From: a virus
Taxonomy: Duplodnaviria; Heunggongvirae; Uroviricota; Caudoviricetes
Direction: 5' to 3' (one strand)
IMG/VR virus record: IMGVR_UViG_2667528045_000005
DNA: 30,049 bases
The position numbers were made by a program, and so were the translations under genes. Every line of letters begins with the position of its first letter. Positions within the stretch are counted from its first letter, which is position 1. Of the stretch, positions 1,666 to 25,727 are shown piece by piece. The notes below the pieces were generated by a model that saw only the letters and a list, made by a program, of their open reading frames with translations, did not search any database and was not told where the DNA came from.

Positions 1666-4110
1666 TCAATAGTCGTGGGTCATGTTGGCACGCTGGCGGG
1701 CGCGTTTATCGCGCTCAATCTGTTCGAGCGTGTCGCGTAGTTGTCTGTCAAGCTGATGCCCCGGCGCAACACCTCCCGGCAGATTGATGTTGTATTCGCT
1801 TTTGCTCTGGTCAATGTAAGAGCGCCCCGCCGGTGCGGTAACTGGCTGATAAGCCTGATAGCCGCCATATGTGCTGGTTGCCGGGATGTAGGAATTACCC
1901 TGTGTGGCGGCATTGGTTTTGGCGGCGGTCTGGTCGAGGCTGTCCGACTCTTTGTTGATGATGCCGAGCTTTTCGAGAAGCCAGTCGACACCGCTGCGCA
2001 GCTTGTTAAAAACATTGAGCGGAGCCATCAAGGCAGAGGCCAGTGCCTGACCAAATATGACGCCGACACTTTTGCAGCTATCAAGCGTTTCCTGCGTGGC
2101 CTTAATCGGTGCTATCAGGTCTTTAAACCACTGCCAGACGCCGCGCAGTTTCTCGCCGAGACCATCAAAAATGGGAGCCAGTGGAGCGAACATTTCCCCG
2201 ACTGGGGCAAAGGCACTCATGATGCCCTCAATCACTCCCGAGAAAAATGCGCTGATGGGCTCCCAATATTTACGGATGAGTAGCGCCCCCGCCACAATCG
2301 CCGCACCGACGGCCACTATCGGCCAGGTAATCGCACCGAGCGCTGTCGCAATGGCACTACCGACGACAGTAAAGACCGTACCCAGCACGCCAGCAGCGGC
2401 GATAATGGCATTAATCCCCATGACAACCGGCCACGCAACGAGACCAATGCCGCCGATGATACCAATCAGCGCCAGCGCACCACCGGCGATGATGCCGATA
2501 GTTTCCGCTAACTCCTTGTTGTCTTTGATCCAGTCATCAAGCTTTAGCACATACCGTGTTGCTGTCTGAGTTAGCTGACGCAATGAGCTATCTTGCTGGT
2601 CGTAGAGGTCGGTACCGACGGCCTCATAAGCGGATTGAAACTCTTTGAAGTCGCCACCTAAGTTATCCTGCATAATTTTAACAAGCTCTGCGGTTTTTCC
2701 GTCTGAGGCTTTCAGGGTGGAGGTTAGCTGGTCAAGTTTGCCGGTTGAGGCGGCAGTCATGAGCACCGCCGCCGCCGAACTGGCTTCCTCACCGAATATC
2801 GTTTTCATGTATTCGGCTTGTTGACCGGTGCCGAGATTGTTACGCTCAAAACTGGCCTGCATTTCCTTGAGGATGGTAAAAATCGGGCGCGTGTTGCCTT
2901 TACTGTCGGAAGTTTTGACACCCAGCTCCTTAAGCGCATCCCACGCTTTACCGGTCGGAGCCTGCAGGCGGCTTAAAACCGCACGGCTCCCGGTGCCGGC
3001 CATCGAGCCGGTGATTTTGGCGTCATGCAGGGCGCCCACCATTGCGGCAGTTTCTTCAATGCTGACACCGGCATTTTTCGCCACCGGCGCGGCGTATGTC
3101 AGCGCATCGCTCAGCCCGTCGAAATCGGCAGCAGTTTTATTCATCACCGTCGACAGAACGTCGCCAATGTGCGCCACCTTGTCATTGGAAAGCTGAAACG
3201 CAGAGCGCATCCCCATCAGTAATGCGGCGTTTTCTTCCATCGTGCGACGGTTGGCAAGCGCCATATTGAGGGTGACCGGTGTCGTCGCCTGAATGGCTGC
3301 CGCATCGCCGCCCCCTTTGGCGATAATAATCTGCGCACTGGCTGCATCATCAGCAGAAGCGGCTGTATTGTCACCGAGCTGGCGTGCCTGTTTGCGTAGC
3401 GCCTCCATTTCTGGCGACTGCTTATCGACCCCGAGCACGGCCTGCAGCTCGGAATTTTTCTGCGCAAAGTCATAACCGGGCATCAGTAATTTCACCCCGG
3501 CCATCGTTCCCGCTGTCGCGATACCTACCCCGGCAGCCCCTGCAGCGGCCATGTTACCGGCAAGCTCCTTGCCTGATTTATATCGCTCTTTCACCCGGCC
3601 TAATTTCGCCTGCTGCGCACTGACGCGCGCCAGTGCCTCACGCTGGCGGTTAAGCTGCGCCGTCGTTTCGCTGATGGAGGTTTTGAGCCGACGCTCATCG
3701 GCAGAAAGGGTGCGGGTATTAATACCGGCCTGCATCAGTTCGGAGCGCTGGCGCTGTACAGACGTTCTCAGATTGTTGTACTTCGTCTGTAGCTCAGAGG
3801 CAGCACGCTTTGCCGCTTCGAGTGCCTGCGCCTGCGCGCGGGTCGGACTGGTGGAGTTTTTAAACTGCACGGCCAGTTCACCGGCTTCGCGTTTCGCTTT
3901 CTCAAGCGCCTGACTGGTCACGGCCAGTTGCGCACTGGCCTTACGAAAGCCGTCGATTTTTGACGCCTGACCATTCAGGTCACGCAGCCCTTTTTGTGTT
4001 TCGCGAATATCGCCCGACAGGGTTTTACTCGCGGTCTGGATGGATTTAAGCGGTCGGGTCGCCTGGTCGACCGCTTTCAGCAAAACCTCAAGTCTCAGGT
4101 TATTACTCAT
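1666..4110 (-). CDS. T: tail tape measure protein gpT
   Basis: 814 aa, Ala/Gly-rich with coiled-coil N-terminus and hydrophobic central glycine-zipper segment; follows E/E' as in P2. Confidence 0.9.
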   Translation of the reverse strand: MSNNLRLEVLLKAVDQATRPLKSIQTASKTLSGDIRETQKGLRDLNGQASKIDGFRKASAQLAVTSQALEKAKREAGELAVQFKNSTSPTRAQAQALEAAKRAASELQTKYNNLRTSVQRQRSELMQAGINTRTLSADERRLKTSISETTAQLNRQREALARVSAQQAKLGRVKERYKSGKELAGNMAAAGAAGVGIATAGTMAGVKLLMPGYDFAQKNSELQAVLGVDKQSPEMEALRKQARQLGDNTAASADDAASAQIIIAKGGGDAAAIQATTPVTLNMALANRRTMEENAALLMGMRSAFQLSNDKVAHIGDVLSTVMNKTAADFDGLSDALTYAAPVAKNAGVSIEETAAMVGALHDAKITGSMAGTGSRAVLSRLQAPTGKAWDALKELGVKTSDSKGNTRPIFTILKEMQASFERNNLGTGQQAEYMKTIFGEEASSAAAVLMTAASTGKLDQLTSTLKASDGKTAELVKIMQDNLGGDFKEFQSAYEAVGTDLYDQQDSSLRQLTQTATRYVLKLDDWIKDNKELAETIGIIAGGALALIGIIGGIGLVAWPVVMGINAIIAAAGVLGTVFTVVGSAIATALGAITWPIVAVGAAIVAGALLIRKYWEPISAFFSGVIEGIMSAFAPVGEMFAPLAPIFDGLGEKLRGVWQWFKDLIAPIKATQETLDSCKSVGVIFGQALASALMAPLNVFNKLRSGVDWLLEKLGIINKESDSLDQTAAKTNAATQGNSYIPATSTYGGYQAYQPVTAPAGRSYIDQSKSEYNINLPGGVAPGHQLDRQLRDTLEQIERDKRARQRANMTHDY

Positions 4111-19545: not shown

Positions 19546-20592
19546 ATGGGTAAACAAAAATCCCGTAAAGCCAACGCACAAAAGGCCAGCAAACCACAAC
19601 AACTGACCGCCAGCGCACCGCCAAAAACGACAGCGTTCACCTTCGGCGAGCCGGTGCCGGTACTCGATAAGCGCGACATTCTGGATTACGTCGAGTGCAT
19701 CAGTAACGGCAAATGGTACGAGCCGCCGGTCAGCTTCTCAGGGCTGGCAAAGAGCCTGCGCTCTGCCGTGCATCACAGCTCGCCAATTTATGTTAAGCGT
19801 AACGTGCTCGCGAGCACCTACATTCCGCACCCGTTGTTATCCCGTCAGGATTTCAGCCGCTTTGCGCTCGATTATCTGGTGTTCGGTAACGCCTTTCTTG
19901 AGCAGCGCCACAGCGTCACCGGCCAGTTAATCAAACTGCTGGCCTCGCCAGCCAAATACACCCGACGCGGAGTCGACGATTCGATTTTCTGGTTTGTGGA
20001 AAACTTCACCCAGCCGCACGAGTTCGCGCCTGATACCGTGTTTCACCTGCTGGAGCCCGACATTAATCAGGAGATTTACGGTCTGCCGGAATATCTCAGC
20101 GCGCTTAATTCCGCTTGGCTGAATGAATCCGCGACGCTGTTCCGCCGCAAGTATTATCAGAACGGCGCGCACGCAGGCTACATCATGTATGTGACTGACC
20201 CGGCGCAGAGCGCGACCGACGTCGAATCGCTGCGCGAGGCGATGCGCAACTCAAAAGGGCTCGGCAACTTTAAGAACCTGTTTTTCTACGCTCCCGGCGG
20301 AAAACCGGACGGCATCAAAATCGTGCCACTGAGCGAGGTCGCCACAAAGGATGACTTTTTCAACATCAAGAAGGCCAGTGCCGCCGATCTGATGGACGCG
20401 CACCGCGTACCGTTCCAGCTCATGGGCGGCAAGCCCGAGAATATCGGTTCACTCGGTGATGTTGAGAAGGTGGCAAAGGTATTTGTGCGCAACGAGCTGT
20501 CGCCGCTACAGGACAGGTTCAGGGAGGTAAATGACTGGCTCGGCATGGAGGTCATCAGATTCAAAGAGTACACCCTCGACAACCCAGAATAA
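19546..20592 (+). CDS. Q: portal protein gpQ
   Basis: 348 aa; P2 gpQ-like; 1 nt after the P stop. Confidence 0.9.
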   Translation: MGKQKSRKANAQKASKPQQLTASAPPKTTAFTFGEPVPVLDKRDILDYVECISNGKWYEPPVSFSGLAKSLRSAVHHSSPIYVKRNVLASTYIPHPLLSRQDFSRFALDYLVFGNAFLEQRHSVTGQLIKLLASPAKYTRRGVDDSIFWFVENFTQPHEFAPDTVFHLLEPDINQEIYGLPEYLSALNSAWLNESATLFRRKYYQNGAHAGYIMYVTDPAQSATDVESLREAMRNSKGLGNFKNLFFYAPGGKPDGIKIVPLSEVATKDDFFNIKKASAADLMDAHRVPFQLMGGKPENIGSLGDVEKVAKVFVRNELSPLQDRFREVNDWLGMEVIRFKEYTLDNPE

Positions 20593-20669: not shown

Positions 20670-21674
20670 ATGGGCGCGGAGATTAATATTTTGGAAACTG
20701 ATTTTAAAATAACCCTCGAAGGTTTCGCTACTGAGCAAGAAGCAAATAATATCGGTAATTTCACACTAGAAGCTATCCGAGCTTTAACAAAAAATCTCAA
20801 TCTTGATATCTCCAAATTAAAATGCGTGATTGTTTCCTATAACTTCAGTGAAGCTCTTCAAAAGGTAACATCCTCTTACCAACACAAATCCCCTAGTTCA
20901 TTTACCAATAGCAAACAGGGCGCAGCCGTCGGGCAGTTAGTAACAAAAATTGGCAATGATGGGCTATGTGAAGAATATACCCTTGTGCTATCGATTGATT
21001 TTTTTGTTGAGCTTTTCAATGATGGTAGCTTCTTAAAACTGAAAGAAGAAGGATACCTCGCAGTCATCCATCGCATTCACCATGAATTAGTGCACGTACA
21101 TGAAAAAAACTTACTAACATGCTTAGCCCAAAACTTTACAGTCAACGAGTATGGTAGCGCGCTTCTTATCTCAGCCACGCGTGCATGGTCTGAATATCTC
21201 GCTAATTACATGTCTTCGGGGTCTGCCCCTCAAGAAACTATCGATTTATTTTTAGAGAATCTTGACACTGTTGTAAATGAAGTATCTGACGAGATTGAAA
21301 AACTCATCTGGGGTTATAAGTACGGTAATATTTCTCTGAATGACATGTATCTTGAAGTAAAAAAACGTATCAGGCTAATCATCAACTCTTATGCTTATGC
21401 GATGGGTTATGTCCATTCTCTAAACATCAATATTAAAGAATACGATCCAAAGCTATCCCTTACACTATCCAACTCAAAGATAAGATATCAATTATCAGAA
21501 TTAGGCATTGCTTTTCAGAATCTTTATGGGAAGTTTAATGACCAGCACATTACAGGTTTTGGTGATTTTCGGGAGATAACAATAATCATTGATGAAATAT
21601 TCAAGCAGTTTGGGCTTGTTTTAGAGTGTCCCGATTGGTCTGGCGACGGTGAACTCTACATACATGTAAATTAG
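20670..21674 (+). CDS. hypothetical protein, AT-rich orphan gene; HRIHHELVHVHE segment (HExxH-like or HEPN-like)
   Basis: 334-aa intact ORF; markedly lower GC than flanking phage genes; inserted between portal Q and cos. Confidence 0.6.
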   Translation: MGAEINILETDFKITLEGFATEQEANNIGNFTLEAIRALTKNLNLDISKLKCVIVSYNFSEALQKVTSSYQHKSPSSFTNSKQGAAVGQLVTKIGNDGLCEEYTLVLSIDFFVELFNDGSFLKLKEEGYLAVIHRIHHELVHVHEKNLLTCLAQNFTVNEYGSALLISATRAWSEYLANYMSSGSAPQETIDLFLENLDTVVNEVSDEIEKLIWGYKYGNISLNDMYLEVKKRIRLIINSYAYAMGYVHSLNINIKEYDPKLSLTLSNSKIRYQLSELGIAFQNLYGKFNDQHITGFGDFREITIIIDEIFKQFGLVLECPDWSGDGELYIHVN

Positions 21675-21893
21675 TTTAATCATAGTAGAAACATAATTAG
21701 CAGTTTGAATCCTGCCACTCCTATAAAGCCGCTGCTCCTGGTGGCTTTTCCATGCACACCACCATCACGCATCAGATGCGTCTCACGCGCACGAACACAC
21801 TCGACCACCAACGAACCAGCAGCGACCACGACAGCGCCATCACGACGCGCTCAGAGGATAATTTTTATTATTATGCATCACTGCTGGCGCGCA

Positions 21894-21912
21894 ATGCTTT
21901 CCCCGCCACGCC
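21894..21912. other. cos cohesive-end sequence (186-type)
   Basis: ATGCTTTCCCCGCCACGCC is the reverse complement of GGCGTGGCGGGGAAAGCAT, the phage 186 cohesive end as I remember it (2 mismatches to P2). Confidence 0.7.
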
Positions 21913-22072
21913 TGCCCGCTTTATGGGGCGGTTTTAATGCAGTTGCATGACAACTCTGGATCCGCGCTAGCTCTGGCGGCGCACGGACAGAACGGGCAAG
22001 ACTGACGCATGCAAAACCATGCACCTAATGCATGCACGACTAAAAAACGGGAAATTCGCGGAAAAATGGCAT

Positions 22073-22106
22073 AAAAAAACCGGCATTCAGGGTGCCGGTT
22101 TTAGTC
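22073..22106. terminator. bidirectional intrinsic terminator
   Basis: A7 - CCGGCA TTCAGGG TGCCGG - TTTT; on the minus strand the hairpin is followed by seven Ts. Confidence 0.6.
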
Positions 22107-22120
22107 TGGTTTTGTCGCGA

Positions 22121-22222
22121 TTAATGGCCGCGCAATGCGCCAATAACACTGTTGAGGCACATGCTGGCAAAAATCATCAGAAAAATCGTCGTCCACGGAT
22201 TTTCATAAACGAGAGATAACAT
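22121..22222 (-). CDS. possible small hydrophobic membrane peptide (33 aa)
   Basis: MLSLVYENPWTTIFLMIFASMCLNSVIGALRGH; AAGAGGA upstream of the ATG; last ORF before the terminator; not in the ORF track (under 60 aa). Confidence 0.25.
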   Translation of the reverse strand: MLSLVYENPWTTIFLMIFASMCLNSVIGALRGH

Positions 22223-22238
22223 ATTTATATAGTTCCTC

Positions 22239-22523
22239 TTATTTGCGCATTCTGATGTGATTTAACAGGTGTTTGATAACGACTGATAGCTCATCTTTAC
22301 CGGCCTGCTCGACCATTTTTGCGGTGTAGCTTTCCACCTCGCGAGAGCTCAGGTCGTTATTTAAAGCCATTAAAGTCAGATTCTTTGCCCAATCGGCAAA
22401 CGGGTCATTTTTCGATGAAAGGGGATTTTGCATGTCCAAAAACCTCGAATTATTTAACCAGCAGACGGTTGAAGTATTTGCGACGCTATGACCGGCTAAC
22501 GCCTCGCGTAGCTCGTTGTTCAA
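22239..22523 (-). CDS. hypothetical protein (start uncertain: TTG at 22523 or ATG at 22433)
   Basis: 94-aa ORF in the cos-proximal island; N-terminal codons overlap repeat copy R1. Confidence 0.4.
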   Translation of the reverse strand: MNNELREALAGHSVANTSTVCWLNNSRFLDMQNPLSSKNDPFADWAKNLTLMALNNDLSSREVESYTAKMVEQAGKDELSVVIKHLLNHIRMRK

Positions 22524-22564
22524 CCCCGCCAGACCTGAAAGCGAGTTTCAGCTCCGGCGGCGTT
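22496..22564. repeat. 69-bp structured direct repeat, copy R1
   Basis: 60/69 identical to 22901-22969, no gaps; contains imperfect palindrome CCGCCAG..CTGAAA..TTTCAG..CCGGCGG; starts right after the 69-aa ORF stop. Confidence 0.6.
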
Positions 22565-22566
22565 AT

Positions 22567-22776
22567 CTATGGTCGACGTGGTGGCGGTGAGTAATGTGTC
22601 GGCTTGCTGATGCTATCCAGCTTGCCGTAATTATCCCTGACTATTTCGGCACACCCGACCAGCTCGGCGGGTGTCAAATTCTCATTGACCATTATCTGCT
22701 GCAGACGATGAACGATGGCCATCAGTTTGATGCTTTTAGTTTTGTGCTGCGGAATTTCGCCCGGTAGTCGATGCAT
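22567..22776 (-). CDS. hypothetical protein (69 aa)
   Basis: ORF with GAGGG RBS; bracketed by the two 69-bp repeats. Confidence 0.4.
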   Translation of the reverse strand: MHRLPGEIPQHKTKSIKLMAIVHRLQQIMVNENLTPAELVGCAEIVRDNYGKLDSISKPTHYSPPPRRP

Positions 22777-22900
22777 ATTATCGCCCTCAATGAATTTTAT
22801 TTAGCGCTGCCACAGCGCCACTATAAAACCCGCTAAGGTAACGTCCCATTCATCACTGGTGTGTAACCAATAAAACATCGAGAAACTTTGAGAGGAAGAA

Positions 22901-22969
22901 CTAGCGCCTCGCGGTGCGAGTTGTTCAACCCCGCCAGCACTGAAAGCAAGTTTCAGCACCGGCGGCGTT
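22901..22969. repeat. 69-bp structured direct repeat, copy R2
   Basis: Copy of R1; starts right after the DinI-like stop codon. Confidence 0.6.
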
Positions 22970-22971
22970 TG

Positions 22972-23205
22972 TTAATGCAGCCAGCTATCGTCCTCCCATA
23001 CCTGCTGCATGATTTCCATTACTCGTTTTTTATCTTCGTCCAGTTTCAAACCGCTTAGTTCAACGCCATTAGCGGAGCCCTTGCGAATTCGGATAGCAGT
23101 CTTTGGGTAAATAGGTTGAAGATTGCGGTACAGTTCAGCCTCAAGTGCATCCAATGTTGCCTGACTAATTTTTTGCTCTTTATCCAACGTGATATTGATT
23201 CTCAT
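22972..23205 (-). CDS. dinI: DinI-family protein
   Basis: 77 aa; MRINITLDK...LDALEAELYRNLQPIYP...DEDKKRVMEIMQQVWEDDSW aligns along its length with E. coli DinI. Confidence 0.82.
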   Translation of the reverse strand: MRINITLDKEQKISQATLDALEAELYRNLQPIYPKTAIRIRKGSANGVELSGLKLDEDKKRVMEIMQQVWEDDSWLH

Positions 23206-23208
23206 AAT

Positions 23209-23391
23209 CTAATCAGCCTTATAAAAATTATCATCTTCGGTTTCGTTATTTTCGCTGTTTGCTAGGTCTGCAATGAGAGTGAGCGCGAGCTTTAAGTCTG
23301 ATGGCTTGCAGTTTGCAATCAGAGATACCTCGGCAATAAATTGCACACAAGCCCACTTTTGCTGCGTTCGGCTGAAATGTTCGCCAACCAT
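23209..23391 (-). CDS. hypothetical small protein; candidate SOS-induced antirepressor (Tum-like) by position
   Basis: 60 aa, acidic C-terminus; first gene after the LexA box; stop 4 nt before the dinI-like start. Confidence 0.4.
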   Translation of the reverse strand: MVGEHFSRTQQKWACVQFIAEVSLIANCKPSDLKLALTLIADLANSENNETEDDNFYKAD

Positions 23392-23410
23392 GAAATCCCT
23401 CCCACAGGGT

Positions 23411-23430
23411 TACTGTATATTTATACAGTA
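23411..23430. promoter_or_regulatory. LexA operator (SOS box) overlapping a minus-strand promoter
   Basis: TACTGTATATTTATACAGTA fits CTGT-N8-ACAG consensus perfectly; minus strand has TTGCCA upstream and an AT-rich -10 inside the box; GGGAGGG RBS then ATG of the 60-aa ORF. Confidence 0.8.
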
Positions 23431-23504
23431 GCACGTATTGGCAAAAGATGGGAAGAAAAAAAACGAATAGAGCGATTGCTGTATGTGCATGATATGGATA
23501 TGAA

Positions 23505-25727
23505 TTACTCATGTATTGGTTTTGATGCTTCAGCCATCGCCGCAACACGATTAAGGATTTTCCGAGCTTTAGCCTCATGCGATGGTGCTGCGGAAAATAT
23601 TTCTCCTTTGGCCGTTCCGCGTAGCCATTTACCATCAAAACAACTTTTACCACCGGCCATCAGGTGCAGGGCTTCGCCCCGGCTGATATTAATGCCGGTT
23701 GTCAGATGTATCTCATCGATAGTTTTAGCTATAGCTGCGTTTTGCTCATCCGTTCCGTGGATGAATTTTCGCCGTGCTGCTGGCTTTTGCTTCCTGAGTC
23801 GGTTGGTCAATTCTCGTCTTTCACGCCGACTCAGTGGTTTTGTTAAATCCAGTATCGGTGGATCGCTTTCGCTTCCCGTACAGTTATTGACAGAACTCCG
23901 AGGGACGGCTTTGCCGTCCTGAAGGTCAACGGCCAAATCAACAGCACGCTTCGGAACAATCTTCCACTGAGTGAGCCGGGTTAAAATCGGGCTTCCTGCA
24001 CCTATGGAGGAATCGTAGACCCCCTTAATACATACCGTTTCCTCACCGTACTGATTAAGCTCGGTGCGCGGTTCATACAGTGTGCGCACCTGTAAATCAT
24101 CGCGACGGACAAACGGCCCACCCTGAGCATTAACATAACCAGCCCAGTCACCAGCGTCGGCGGCATCATGGACGGCGGCAAACTCAACGCTCAGACCGTG
24201 CGCGGTTTCGGTATCAGCGAGGCGACGCAACTCACGGTAAACCGTCACCGGCGCACCACCAATAAACTGAAACTGACGGATGTGCCAGCGCGCAGCCCAT
24301 GCTGAAACGGCGGGGGCTGTCTCTTTCAGCAGCTCACCGCTTTCATCATCGGTTTCACCATCGAGAGCATAACCGTCGATATTTTTTGAAATGTATTTAG
24401 CAACATAGCCGGTTGCGCTGCCTTTCTCCGGGTCAATGGACTCGGCGTGGAAACGTGCTTTTTTGGATTTATCGCTTTTCAGTTCGTGGCGGTCTTCTTT
24501 CCATGCGTATTTACGGACGATGGAGCGAACATATTCAACATCTTCCGGCAGCATGAACATCAGCATGTGCCAGTGTGGAGTGCCGTCGTGATGGGGCTCG
24601 GCGACACGAATACCGAAAATACGGACATCTTCCCGATGTAGTTTGGCACGGATACGCGCCCAGATACCGGTTAGATAGTTTTGCGTGTCAGCCGGGCTGG
24701 CACCGCTCCATTTGCTGTTACGGTAACCGGCTTTAGTCGTGGCGTGATATTTTGACGGCGCGGTTAGAGTGTAAAACTCACCGACATAACCGAGCTCATT
24801 ACAGATGTTTTCAAACCCACGAATGCGGGTCATGAGCTCACAGCGGCGAATCGCAGGGTTAGCAACTGAGCCATCATATTTTTCAATTAGGCTGATACGG
24901 TTGCCGTCTTCGTCTTCGAGATCCAGACCTTTGAGAAATTCACGAGTGCGGCGCTTTTGTTCACGCCAGTCAGTCACGCAGTTTTTACTCGCGTAAGTGT
25001 TTTTTTTCTTACTGACGTTGCCGACTGCAATTTGCAGGTGTTCGCGCCACGTAGCTGCAACACGGCGCAAACGACCGCGCCACCACCCATCGTTAAACAT
25101 TTTGGCGATAGCCGGTGCGATTTCATCCGCACCGACATATTTTTTTTCAACCCGCTCCCAATGTGGTGGGATAACGTTGAATTGGAGGGAAATAAAGCCA
25201 GCACGAATATACCAGGTGTACAGCGTTTTAAGCTCGCCGAATCCGTGGTCATTAATGTTGGCAAGTTCACCACGAATGAAATTAGCAATATCAGCGGCCA
25301 ACAGGTCAACATCAGCGCGCGACATGTCCGGGAGACGGTTATATTGGGCGACCATATTAACCATGCGTGACGACAGATATTGCATTTGCTGAGTATCAAA
25401 ATGACTTCCAAAAACAGCGGTTGATACCTTGCTGTTGATACCAGCGCATTCGTATTTTTTTGCGACCAGTTCAAGACGCGGCAATGCCTTTTTGCAGAAG
25501 CTGATTAAAAATGCATTGGCTCGTTGACTACCCTGATTTTGCTCCAGCACCGCAGCAGTGCGATAAACATCTAACCGCACGCAGTCGGGCTGGAGAGAAA
25601 GCACCTTTTTTGCATGCAGCAAAGCCGCGAACATACGGTCGCGGCGATGCTGTTGCTCATAAGTAAGGTATGGGCTGGAGATTGCCGACCGTGGGACGTT
25701 CCACGGATAAGCGAATTGAACAGCCAA
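23505..25727 (-). CDS. A: replication initiation endonuclease gpA (rolling-circle)
   Basis: 740 aa; P2 gpA-like. Confidence 0.9.
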   Translation of the reverse strand: MAVQFAYPWNVPRSAISSPYLTYEQQHRRDRMFAALLHAKKVLSLQPDCVRLDVYRTAAVLEQNQGSQRANAFLISFCKKALPRLELVAKKYECAGINSKVSTAVFGSHFDTQQMQYLSSRMVNMVAQYNRLPDMSRADVDLLAADIANFIRGELANINDHGFGELKTLYTWYIRAGFISLQFNVIPPHWERVEKKYVGADEIAPAIAKMFNDGWWRGRLRRVAATWREHLQIAVGNVSKKKNTYASKNCVTDWREQKRRTREFLKGLDLEDEDGNRISLIEKYDGSVANPAIRRCELMTRIRGFENICNELGYVGEFYTLTAPSKYHATTKAGYRNSKWSGASPADTQNYLTGIWARIRAKLHREDVRIFGIRVAEPHHDGTPHWHMLMFMLPEDVEYVRSIVRKYAWKEDRHELKSDKSKKARFHAESIDPEKGSATGYVAKYISKNIDGYALDGETDDESGELLKETAPAVSAWAARWHIRQFQFIGGAPVTVYRELRRLADTETAHGLSVEFAAVHDAADAGDWAGYVNAQGGPFVRRDDLQVRTLYEPRTELNQYGEETVCIKGVYDSSIGAGSPILTRLTQWKIVPKRAVDLAVDLQDGKAVPRSSVNNCTGSESDPPILDLTKPLSRRERRELTNRLRKQKPAARRKFIHGTDEQNAAIAKTIDEIHLTTGINISRGEALHLMAGGKSCFDGKWLRGTAKGEIFSAAPSHEAKARKILNRVAAMAEASKPIHE

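Follow-up and report, generated by a model that had tools for sequence, protein, structure and literature searches.

Among the closest described systems is the SOS operon of phage 186, whose GenBank record (NC_001317) lists, in the interval considered here, the p95 promoter with its LexA site, tum, the partial terminator t95a, orf97 and the terminator t95b. For orf97 the record carries the annotation 'expression from plasmid blocks 186 infection'. With a 69-nt repeat that we call REP included, the 186 layout is tum-orf97-REP-t95b, and that of PSP3 is tumA-tumB-REP-gp37-REP-gp38. The region between gene A and the cohesive end site cos is a variable/defence hotspot of P2-like phages (Rousset et al. 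2022, PMC9122126). A 2026 survey of these hotspots stated the mechanism of rapid cargo swapping there to be unresolved, and recognisable anti-defence genes were present in just 28 of the 1511 P2-like elements surveyed (PMC13586616).

The window, by which we mean the whole 30,049-nt stretch of DNA analysed, is a PSP3/186-type (Eganvirus) prophage of Escherichia coli and belongs to the P2 family. A 1.8-kb region of it agrees at every position (100% identity) with a prophage of E. coli MB06232 and aligns with Salmonella phage SW9 at 91% identity over 97% of its length; it is also matched by PSP3, SI22, SEN1 and Escherichia phage Midge, all Peduoviridae/Eganvirus. A preliminary description of this DNA had picked out two small ORFs that lie past a dinI-like gene in the same orientation, each preceded by a copy of a 69-bp repeat, and had proposed them as accessory or anti-defence genes in a hotspot. 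Both ORFs, both repeats and the DinI-like gene are present as it described, all on the minus strand, and the position does lie in the A-to-cos hotspot. The genes and their order are already in public phage records: PSP3, SW9 and enterobacterial genomes by the hundred contain orf69 and orf64 under the name of hypothetical proteins. The less ordinary side observations are a covarying junction element (REP) and an unannotated membrane peptide (orf33). The features of the interval are as follows.

23505-25727, minus strand: replication endonuclease gene A, P2-type, 740 aa
23411-23454, minus strand: p95-like promoter, with −35 TTCCCA at 23449-23454, an 18-nt spacer and −10 TACTGT
23411-23430: LexA box, 20 nt, TACTGTATAAATATACAGTA, overlapping the p95-like promoter
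23209-23391, minus strand: tumA-like gene, 60 aa (phrog_1993, E=1.1e-31)
22972-23205, minus strand: tumB/DinI-like gene, 77 aa (Pfam DinI PF06183, E=7.4e-24)
22901-22969, minus strand: REP copy B, hairpin at about 22926-22970 (−38.6 kcal/mol, z=−4.65)
22567-22776, minus strand: orf69, 69 aa, ATG start (PSP3 gp37 family/PHROG 11386)
22496-22564, minus strand: REP copy A, hairpin at about 22521-22565 (−37.8 kcal/mol, z=−4.92)
22432-22491, plus strand: 19-codon stub of an opposite-strand gene, from the window sequence against intact relatives
22239-22433, minus strand: orf64, 64 aa, ATG at 22433 (PHROG 2454, SW9 gp44)
22121-22222, minus strand: orf33, 33 aa, MLSLVYENPWTTIFLMIFASMCLNSVIGALRGH, one membrane-spanning segment
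22076-22102, both strands: bidirectional intrinsic terminator (counterpart of t95b) with a stem of 12 bp and a T-run on each strand
21894-21912, minus strand: cos cohesive end, 19 nt, GGCGTGGCGGGGAAAGCAT, one exact match in the window
19546-20592, plus strand: portal gene Q

The order on the minus strand is p95/LexA, tumA, tumB/DinI, REP, orf69, REP, orf64, orf33, t95b and cos. An alignment of the p95-like promoter and LexA box with the p95/LexA site annotated in 186 agrees at nearly every base, and the motif CTGT-N8-ACAG at 23413-23428, which overlaps the −10 element upstream of tumA, is the sole such box in the 30-kb window. The tumA-like protein corresponds to the N-terminal part of the 186 Tum antirepressor; its gene has a pN/pS of 0.18, and in PSP3 the orthologue carries the name TumA with the note 'UV induction of prophage'. 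The tumB/DinI-like protein aligns with the C-terminal half of the PHROG 189 profile, and its annotated equivalent is PSP3 tumB. At the other end, the stretch from the terminator (22076-22102) to cos aligns closely with the t95b-to-cos stretch of 186, and the same 19-mer class of cos lies about 210 nt past orf33 in 34 related loci. Measured against the 186-type SOS operon, the window has a LexA operator on the −10 element, a Tum/DinI-like coding region and a t95b end before cos; it has neither t95a after tum nor orf97 as the distal gene.

A terminator scan found no canonical T-run terminator on the minus strand from tumB to the orf64 stop codon, and gave a weak minus-strand match at 22212-22189, inside orf33. 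The promoter scan was insensitive, missing p95 itself, so that there may be internal promoters in addition. From the homology with 186 and the gene layout we infer that orf69, orf64 and orf33 are co-transcribed from the LexA-controlled promoter as the promoter-distal part of a LexA-repressed tum (SOS) operon. The SOS control predicted for the three genes is taken entirely from the homology with 186. This operon context was missed in the preliminary description.

Selection was measured on a sample of 128 related loci, phage records included, with pN/pS pooled. The pN/pS of orf69 was 0.17 in the annotated frame, 0.29 in the antisense frame that shares third codon positions and 1.0 to 2.2 in the other four; for orf64 the corresponding values were 0.25, 0.36 and 1.0 to 2.2, and for orf33 they were 0.38, 0.54 and 0.7 to 1.4. 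The orf69 frame was open in 72 of 73 sequences, the other five frames having stops in 40 to 73 of them; the annotated frame of orf64 was the sole one open in all 37 sequences, and that of orf33 was likewise the sole open frame. Proteins were maintained while synonymous divergence reached pS values of 0.36 to 0.55. ATG starts, Shine-Dalgarno sites and lengths were conserved among the relatives of orf69 and orf64: a GAGGG lies 7 nt upstream of orf69 and a GAGG about 10 nt upstream of orf64, and all unique copies of both genes start with ATG. Thus, orf69, orf64 and orf33 are genuine protein-coding genes under frame-specific purifying selection. Conservation as coding sequence in relatives was one of the tests that the preliminary description had set for its two ORFs, and it came out in their favour (0.17 and 0.25).

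That description had also called the two ORFs unrecognisable. This holds for protein domains, since searches of Pfam and NCBIfam gave nothing significant for orf69 or orf64, but not for families: both match PHROG profiles over their full length and are annotated as hypothetical proteins in PSP3 (gp37), SW9, SI22 and RefSeq E. coli genomes. The phrog_11386 profile matches orf69 with E=1.7e-47, residues 1-69 falling on positions 1-69 of 69. PSP3 gp37 is its orthologue, with 92% identity over residues 1-63 and membership of the same 90%-identity cluster. A database search returned 184 relatives of orf69, all within Enterobacteriaceae. For the two families the host genera are Escherichia, Salmonella, Citrobacter, Klebsiella, Enterobacter and other Enterobacteriaceae, and every relative is named 'hypothetical'. 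In the AlphaFold model of orf69 (pLDDT 77) residues 10-32 and 36-57 form two long helices and the PPPRRP tail is disordered; Foldseek found no match for this model in the PDB. In P2-type phages orf69 comes immediately after gene A and orf91 and is oriented like the early operon.

The second ORF had been given as 94 aa, possibly 64 aa from an internal ATG, and it is this shorter alternative that proved correct. The phrog_2454 profile (64 positions) is fully covered, with E=1.5e-39, by residues 31-94 only of the 94-aa ORF. Among 54 relatives returned by a database search, 40 are 63-64 aa long and just three are longer (84, 91 and 94 aa). In five related loci there is a stop codon in the 94-aa extension. 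The 94-aa form (22239-22523, minus strand), whose TTG start falls inside the repeat (GTTGAACAAC), was rejected on this profile coverage, on the lengths of the relatives and on the stops in the extension. The 57-nt spacer between REP and orf64 is itself a 19-codon stub, the parent gene of which, at about 145 aa, is intact in phage Midge (CPTMidge_045) and in O157:H7 FRIK2455 (A8V32_RS16460); the ATG of the stub and that of orf64 overlap by 2 nt. The orf64 family is narrow: an exhaustive profile search through 1.84 billion proteins gave 12 cluster representatives, the longer of which contain nothing recognisable by eye. The AlphaFold model of orf64 is a generic three-helix bundle (pLDDT 72), for which Foldseek against the PDB gave nothing better than E>3. 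Profile–profile comparison of the orf69 and orf64 families gave a probability of 0.8%, so the two are not paralogues.

The third gene, orf33, comes after orf64 in all but three of the 43 non-redundant loci that have orf64 (40 of 43), in 36 cases at a distance of 17-22 nt; the gap is usually 19 nt and is 16 nt in the window. Most of the unique copies of orf33 (27 of 32) are intact, and the changes within its membrane segment are conservative. The PGAP annotation of the 100%-identical genome omits orf33, and it is unannotated in PSP3 and in SW9/SI22 too. A Pfam search with orf33 gave no significant match, and an Rfam scan of 21650-23500 found no antitoxin sRNA. We considered a type I or SOS small membrane toxin of the TisB, DinQ or Hok kind, but these searches gave neither toxin-family homology nor an antisense RNA; the agreement with these peptides is in size and single membrane helix only.

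Next we considered the repeats. Copies A and B of REP are direct repeats of 69 nt and 87% identical, and a 47-nt degenerate pattern built from both finds only these two sites in the window, against 0 expected in shuffles. REP starts 3 nt past the tumB stop (copy B) and 1 nt past the orf69 stop (copy A), and in 186 it begins 8 nt past the orf97 stop; in 86 cases a REP lies 0 to 66 nt downstream of orf69. The element folds as an 18-bp hairpin on the transcript (minus) strand, at about −38 kcal/mol compared with −30 to −33 kcal/mol for the plus strand, a difference due to several G-U pairs. When 64 distinct copies from related phages and prophages were aligned, 90.8% of cells were paired, compared with 32 to 48% when the partner was slid. 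Compensatory double changes were present in 10 of the 18 pairs, and none of 500 shuffles reached the observed values. REP is therefore a conserved, covarying, transcript-sense hairpin. Its unpaired segments, GTTGAACAAC and GGCGTTAG, are invariant, and such strong conservation of unpaired sequence suggests an additional, sequence-specific role. A candidate pseudoknot from the loop to downstream sequence was 93% paired, with just one double change.

Rfam has no family for REP at either gathering or permissive thresholds. The element was found in 67 phage records. Of 5426 complete E. coli genomes, 556 carry it, with 1 to 3 copies each, and it is never annotated. Of 613 places in these genomes, 4 were on plasmids, and all copies examined sit in P2-like prophages. 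An intrinsic terminator was rejected because the hairpin is followed by GGGGUUGAACAAC, with no U-run, and the terminator scan was silent at REP. With integron attC sites in mind, the ORFs and annotations of the A-to-Q interval were surveyed, and no integrase was found there. The orientation of REP is fixed and its sequence conserved, and homology between different gene arrangements breaks at its edges. From its position after stop codons and the ending of homology at its edges, REP is best taken to close the module upstream of it, as that module's 3′ end, and to serve as a junction for recombination, rather than to lead the next gene. The 'cassette-like punctuation' noted earlier stands in so far as REP marks module boundaries; what has to be changed is its assignment, to the 3′ end of the preceding module and not to the head of a cassette.

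The arrangement of these genes was surveyed in 110 non-redundant related loci, among which 33 gene arrangements were distinguished. In the P2-type arrangement the order is orf91-orf69-REP-cargo-cos, and in that of the window it is tumB-REP-orf69-REP-orf64-orf33-cos; others are tumB-REP-orf64-orf33-cos, tumB-orf69-REP-cos and tum-orf97-REP-orf69-REP-orf64-orf33-cos. Phage 186 has neither orf69 nor orf64; in P2 the orf69 family is missing, and the annotation of the A-to-cos region lists no orf64 gene. The syntenic comparison asked for in the preliminary description recovers both genes in relatives, present or absent in many combinations, and supports its view of them as accessory: orf69 and orf64 are dispensable genes that are shuffled as modules. 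REP, orf69 and the orf64-orf33-cos end piece are conserved flanks at which exchange could occur.

Further searches for function returned nothing informative, and none of the results indicates an anti-defence role. PADLOC-DB v2 gave no match for orf69 or orf33, and its match of orf64 to PtuB (E=0.033, 11.8 bits) is noise. Profile searches of the PDB with orf69 and orf64 gave best E values of 0.19 to 0.9. In these searches neither protein showed sequence or fold similarity to characterised inhibitor or anti-defence families that have a Pfam model or a solved structure; the structure models used are of moderate pLDDT (72 to 77) and come from shallow alignments of low diversity. In the literature, no papers were found under the accession numbers or PHROG ids of these genes, and no ribosome-profiling evidence for strains with P2-like prophages.

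The reading that we tentatively favour is that orf69 and orf64 encode accessory binder proteins, timed to induction or early growth, that act on a function of the host or of a competitor. What points this way is the lack of a catalytic fold, the dispensability of the genes and their position either behind a LexA-repressed promoter or at the end of the early operon; tiny all-helical proteins of predicted non-catalytic fold would most likely act by binding. According to this reading orf69, orf64 and orf33 are probably silent in the lysogen, and DNA damage would lead to their co-transcription with tumA and tumB, the antirepressor genes; in the P2-type relatives, by contrast, orf69 would be expressed as part of the early operon, in which it stands last. 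The most probable role would be to neutralise or modulate a function of the host or of a co-resident element as induction or early lytic growth begins, within the first minutes; such a role would be one of host takeover or counter-defence and not of lysogenic-conversion immunity. The REP hairpins would probably serve as 3′ punctuation of the mRNA past each upstream module, either as a stabiliser or as a partial barrier, and, being conserved islands between variable genes, also as points of module exchange by recombination. In this scheme the mode of action (binding), the kind of target, the SOS-dependent co-transcription and the part played by the hairpin are inferences. The annotation of 186 orf97, the sole experimental note for the same slot, points to exclusion and in that respect speaks against counter-defence, and the low count of recognisable anti-defence genes in the survey of P2-like elements (28 of 1511; PMC13586616) also weighs against it.

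A possible but rather unlikely alternative is that orf69, orf64 and orf33 are superinfection-exclusion or defence effectors, like 186 orf97 and P2 old/tin, that protect the lysogen or the induction-committed cell, with orf64 and orf33 forming a membrane module. The genes fill the slot of orf97, which blocks 186 infection from a plasmid according to its annotation, and it is in the A-to-cos region that P2-like phages have their defence hotspot (PMC9122126; PMC13586616). The membrane module would be consistent with the regularity with which orf33, a conserved single-pass membrane peptide, accompanies orf64, although each is also found without the other, orf33 in two loci and orf64 in a few. In O157:H7, moreover, orf64-orf33 adjoins a reverse-transcriptase cargo, possibly a retron. 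However, no PADLOC model was matched, and no promoter of their own was detected for the genes, which, unlike old/tin, are co-oriented behind a LexA-repressed promoter and so would be off in an undamaged lysogen. The membership of orf69 in the early operon of P2-type phages also argues against exclusion.

It is unlikely, too, that orf69 and orf64 fine-tune the phage's own induction switch by modulating CI, Tum, RecA or LexA together with TumA and TumB. Such a role would fit an operon shared with the antirepressor and with a DinI-like RecA-filament binder, and the 186 record lists several (shorter) tum products that modulate SOS induction. However, orf69 is equally common in P2-type phages with orf91 in place of tum and with no LexA box: 31 orf91-orf69 loci lack tumB, compared with about 35 loci in which orf69 goes with tumB; orf64-orf33 is also present without tum, and 186 is SOS-inducible though it has neither orf69 nor orf64.

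A more ambitious combined proposal, which we regard as improbable, links the two parts of the locus: REP, as a sequence-specific signal in RNA or DNA, would form a dedicated junction that drives the rapid swapping of modules in the hotspot, and orf69 and orf64-orf33 would be SOS-timed effectors, so far unrecognised, that during induction either inactivate host defences or bring about killing or exclusion at the membrane. Finally, that the ORFs are non-functional and kept only as DNA near the cos and repeat flanks, for packaging or recombination, is hardly credible: they are short, orf64-orf33 is always about 210 nt from cos and orf33 is disrupted in one relative, but purifying selection far stronger than in the control frames largely refutes the idea, as do the conserved starts, Shine-Dalgarno sites and lengths, the maintenance of protein at the pS values given above (0.36 to 0.55) and the normal packaging of phages such as 186 that have neither orf69 nor orf64. 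Part of the probability is reserved for functions other than those named in these readings.

As it stands the finding matters little, these being ordinary genes with no functional pointer. Their placement in a putative LexA-controlled transcription unit makes DNA damage a concrete condition under which to seek a phenotype. The analysis also corrects the gene model of the second ORF to 64 aa and reveals a third, unannotated gene for a membrane peptide, and the presence of the REP hairpin at the exact breakpoints of module exchange is relevant to the shuffling of hotspot cargo in P2-like phages.

Bacterial genomes contain intercistronic hairpins of the REP/BIME type, and mosaic lambdoid phages contain 'boundary sequences'. 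The phage element resembles both in being a GC-rich, conserved, transcript-sense hairpin between cistrons, just past stop codons, and in that the homology of different arrangements stops at its edges. It differs from the E. coli REP in being unrelated to it in sequence. TisB and DinQ are SOS-induced small membrane peptides. Like them, orf33 has about 30 aa and one hydrophobic helix and lies behind a putatively LexA-controlled promoter; unlike them, it is the last cistron of what appears to be a polycistronic phage operon and not a stand-alone type I toxin, and it shares no sequence similarity with them.

The TO region of P2, with old and tin, occupies the same interval, from gene A to cos/Q, and is likewise variable in content between relatives. 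However, old and tin are large genes on the opposite strand with a transcript of their own, whereas the genes of the window are tiny, are co-oriented with the early/SOS operon and match no defence model. Among the closer relatives, SW9 has the same four annotated genes as the window (gp41-gp44 in SW9/SI22), while PSP3 has gp38 (139 aa) in place of orf64-orf33. The likeness to the 186 SOS operon extends to promoter, LexA box and terminator-to-cos sequences, which are homologous to those of the window, to the order of an antirepressor and DinI-like coding region, then accessory gene(s), then cos, and to the 69-nt REP, of which 186 has one copy, past orf97. The window differs from 186 in that tum is split into tumA and tumB, as in PSP3; in that a REP, which has no U-tract, lies at the position of t95a; and in that orf97 (243 aa, with a hydrophobic N-terminus) is replaced by orf69, orf64 and orf33.

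The 69-nt repeat REP is an unannotated structured element that is widespread among P2-like phages, and is located as follows:

22496-22564 and 22901-22969, − strand sense: the two copies of REP in the window
2845-2913 of phage 186 (L005): REP, 69 nt

In the transcript sense, REP forms an 18-bp hairpin with strong covariation, double changes being seen at 10 of its 18 pairs. Of the hairpin cells, 90.8% were paired, compared with 32 to 48% when the partner was slid, while the unpaired motifs GTTGAACAAC and GGCGTTAG were invariant. A loop-to-downstream pseudoknot (CUYGC with GCGAG) is possible, with 93% pairing and almost no double changes. Searching Rfam with REP gave no family matches. The element was carried by 556 of 5426 complete E. 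coli genomes and by 67 phage records, and its position marks the exact breakpoints between alternative gene modules.

In several complete E. coli chromosome records the distance between coordinate 1 and REP is just 2.6 to 3.0 kb (for example NZ_CP110511.1, 2624-2691, and NZ_CP054371.1, 2947-3015). This proximity suggests that the assemblies may have been given a rotated start, placed in or close to gene A, the P2-like replication gene. The pattern appears to come from start-rotation tools and not from biology.

Two further features lie beside the REP copies, one upstream of orf69 (the 69-aa ORF) and one beside orf64 (the 64-aa ORF):

22804-22818, − strand sense: a further small hairpin (GCGCUG-UGG-CAGCGC) in the stretch that separates orf69 from REP copy B
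22432-22491, + strand (opposite to orf64): a 19-codon stub (MSKNLELFNQQTVEVFATL, then stop) of a gene of ~145 aa

The small hairpin is followed by an A/U-rich stretch, and the start codon of orf69 comes ~27 nt further on. Phage Midge (as CPTMidge_045, whose annotation notes similarity to T7 5.5/5.7) and E. coli O157:H7 FRIK2455 both carry the ~145-aa gene intact. The ATG of this gene and that of orf64 share 2 nt. The deletion within this gene in the window stops at the REP edge.

The FRIK2455 locus (L129) also shows how orf64 and orf33, the 33-aa ORF that follows it, can be placed beside other cargo:

2619-4610 of L129: region with orf64 and orf33 next to cos and other genes towards gene A

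There, a reverse-transcriptase gene and an HTH gene, possibly a retron, fill the space on the gene A side. This layout illustrates that orf64-orf33 can stay as a cos-proximal end piece while the neighbouring defence cargo changes.

The interval from cos to the portal gene Q is a second variable slot:

20670-21674, + strand: a 334-aa ORF between cos and Q
21752-21937, + strand: a 61-aa 'hypothetical protein', a PGAP call in the identical E. coli genome

The 334-aa ORF matches PHROG 11743, a family of unknown function (E=2.8e-157), and gave no matches in Pfam, NCBIfam or PADLOC. Most related loci lack it; the minority that carry it include L004, L008, L036, L041, L067, L073 and L076. The 61-aa call spans the cohesive-end site at 21894-21912 and is probably spurious.

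On the other side of cos, orf33 is the final gene in the operon under LexA control:

22121-22222, − strand: orf33, an unannotated gene for a 33-aa single-pass membrane peptide

Its pN/pS is 0.38 and no other frame is open. The gap from orf64 to orf33 is 19 nt in nearly all relatives and 16 nt in the window, and in L077 and L080 orf33 is present without orf64. Although it has no sequence similarity to the SOS-induced small membrane peptides, orf33 resembles them in both size and regulation.
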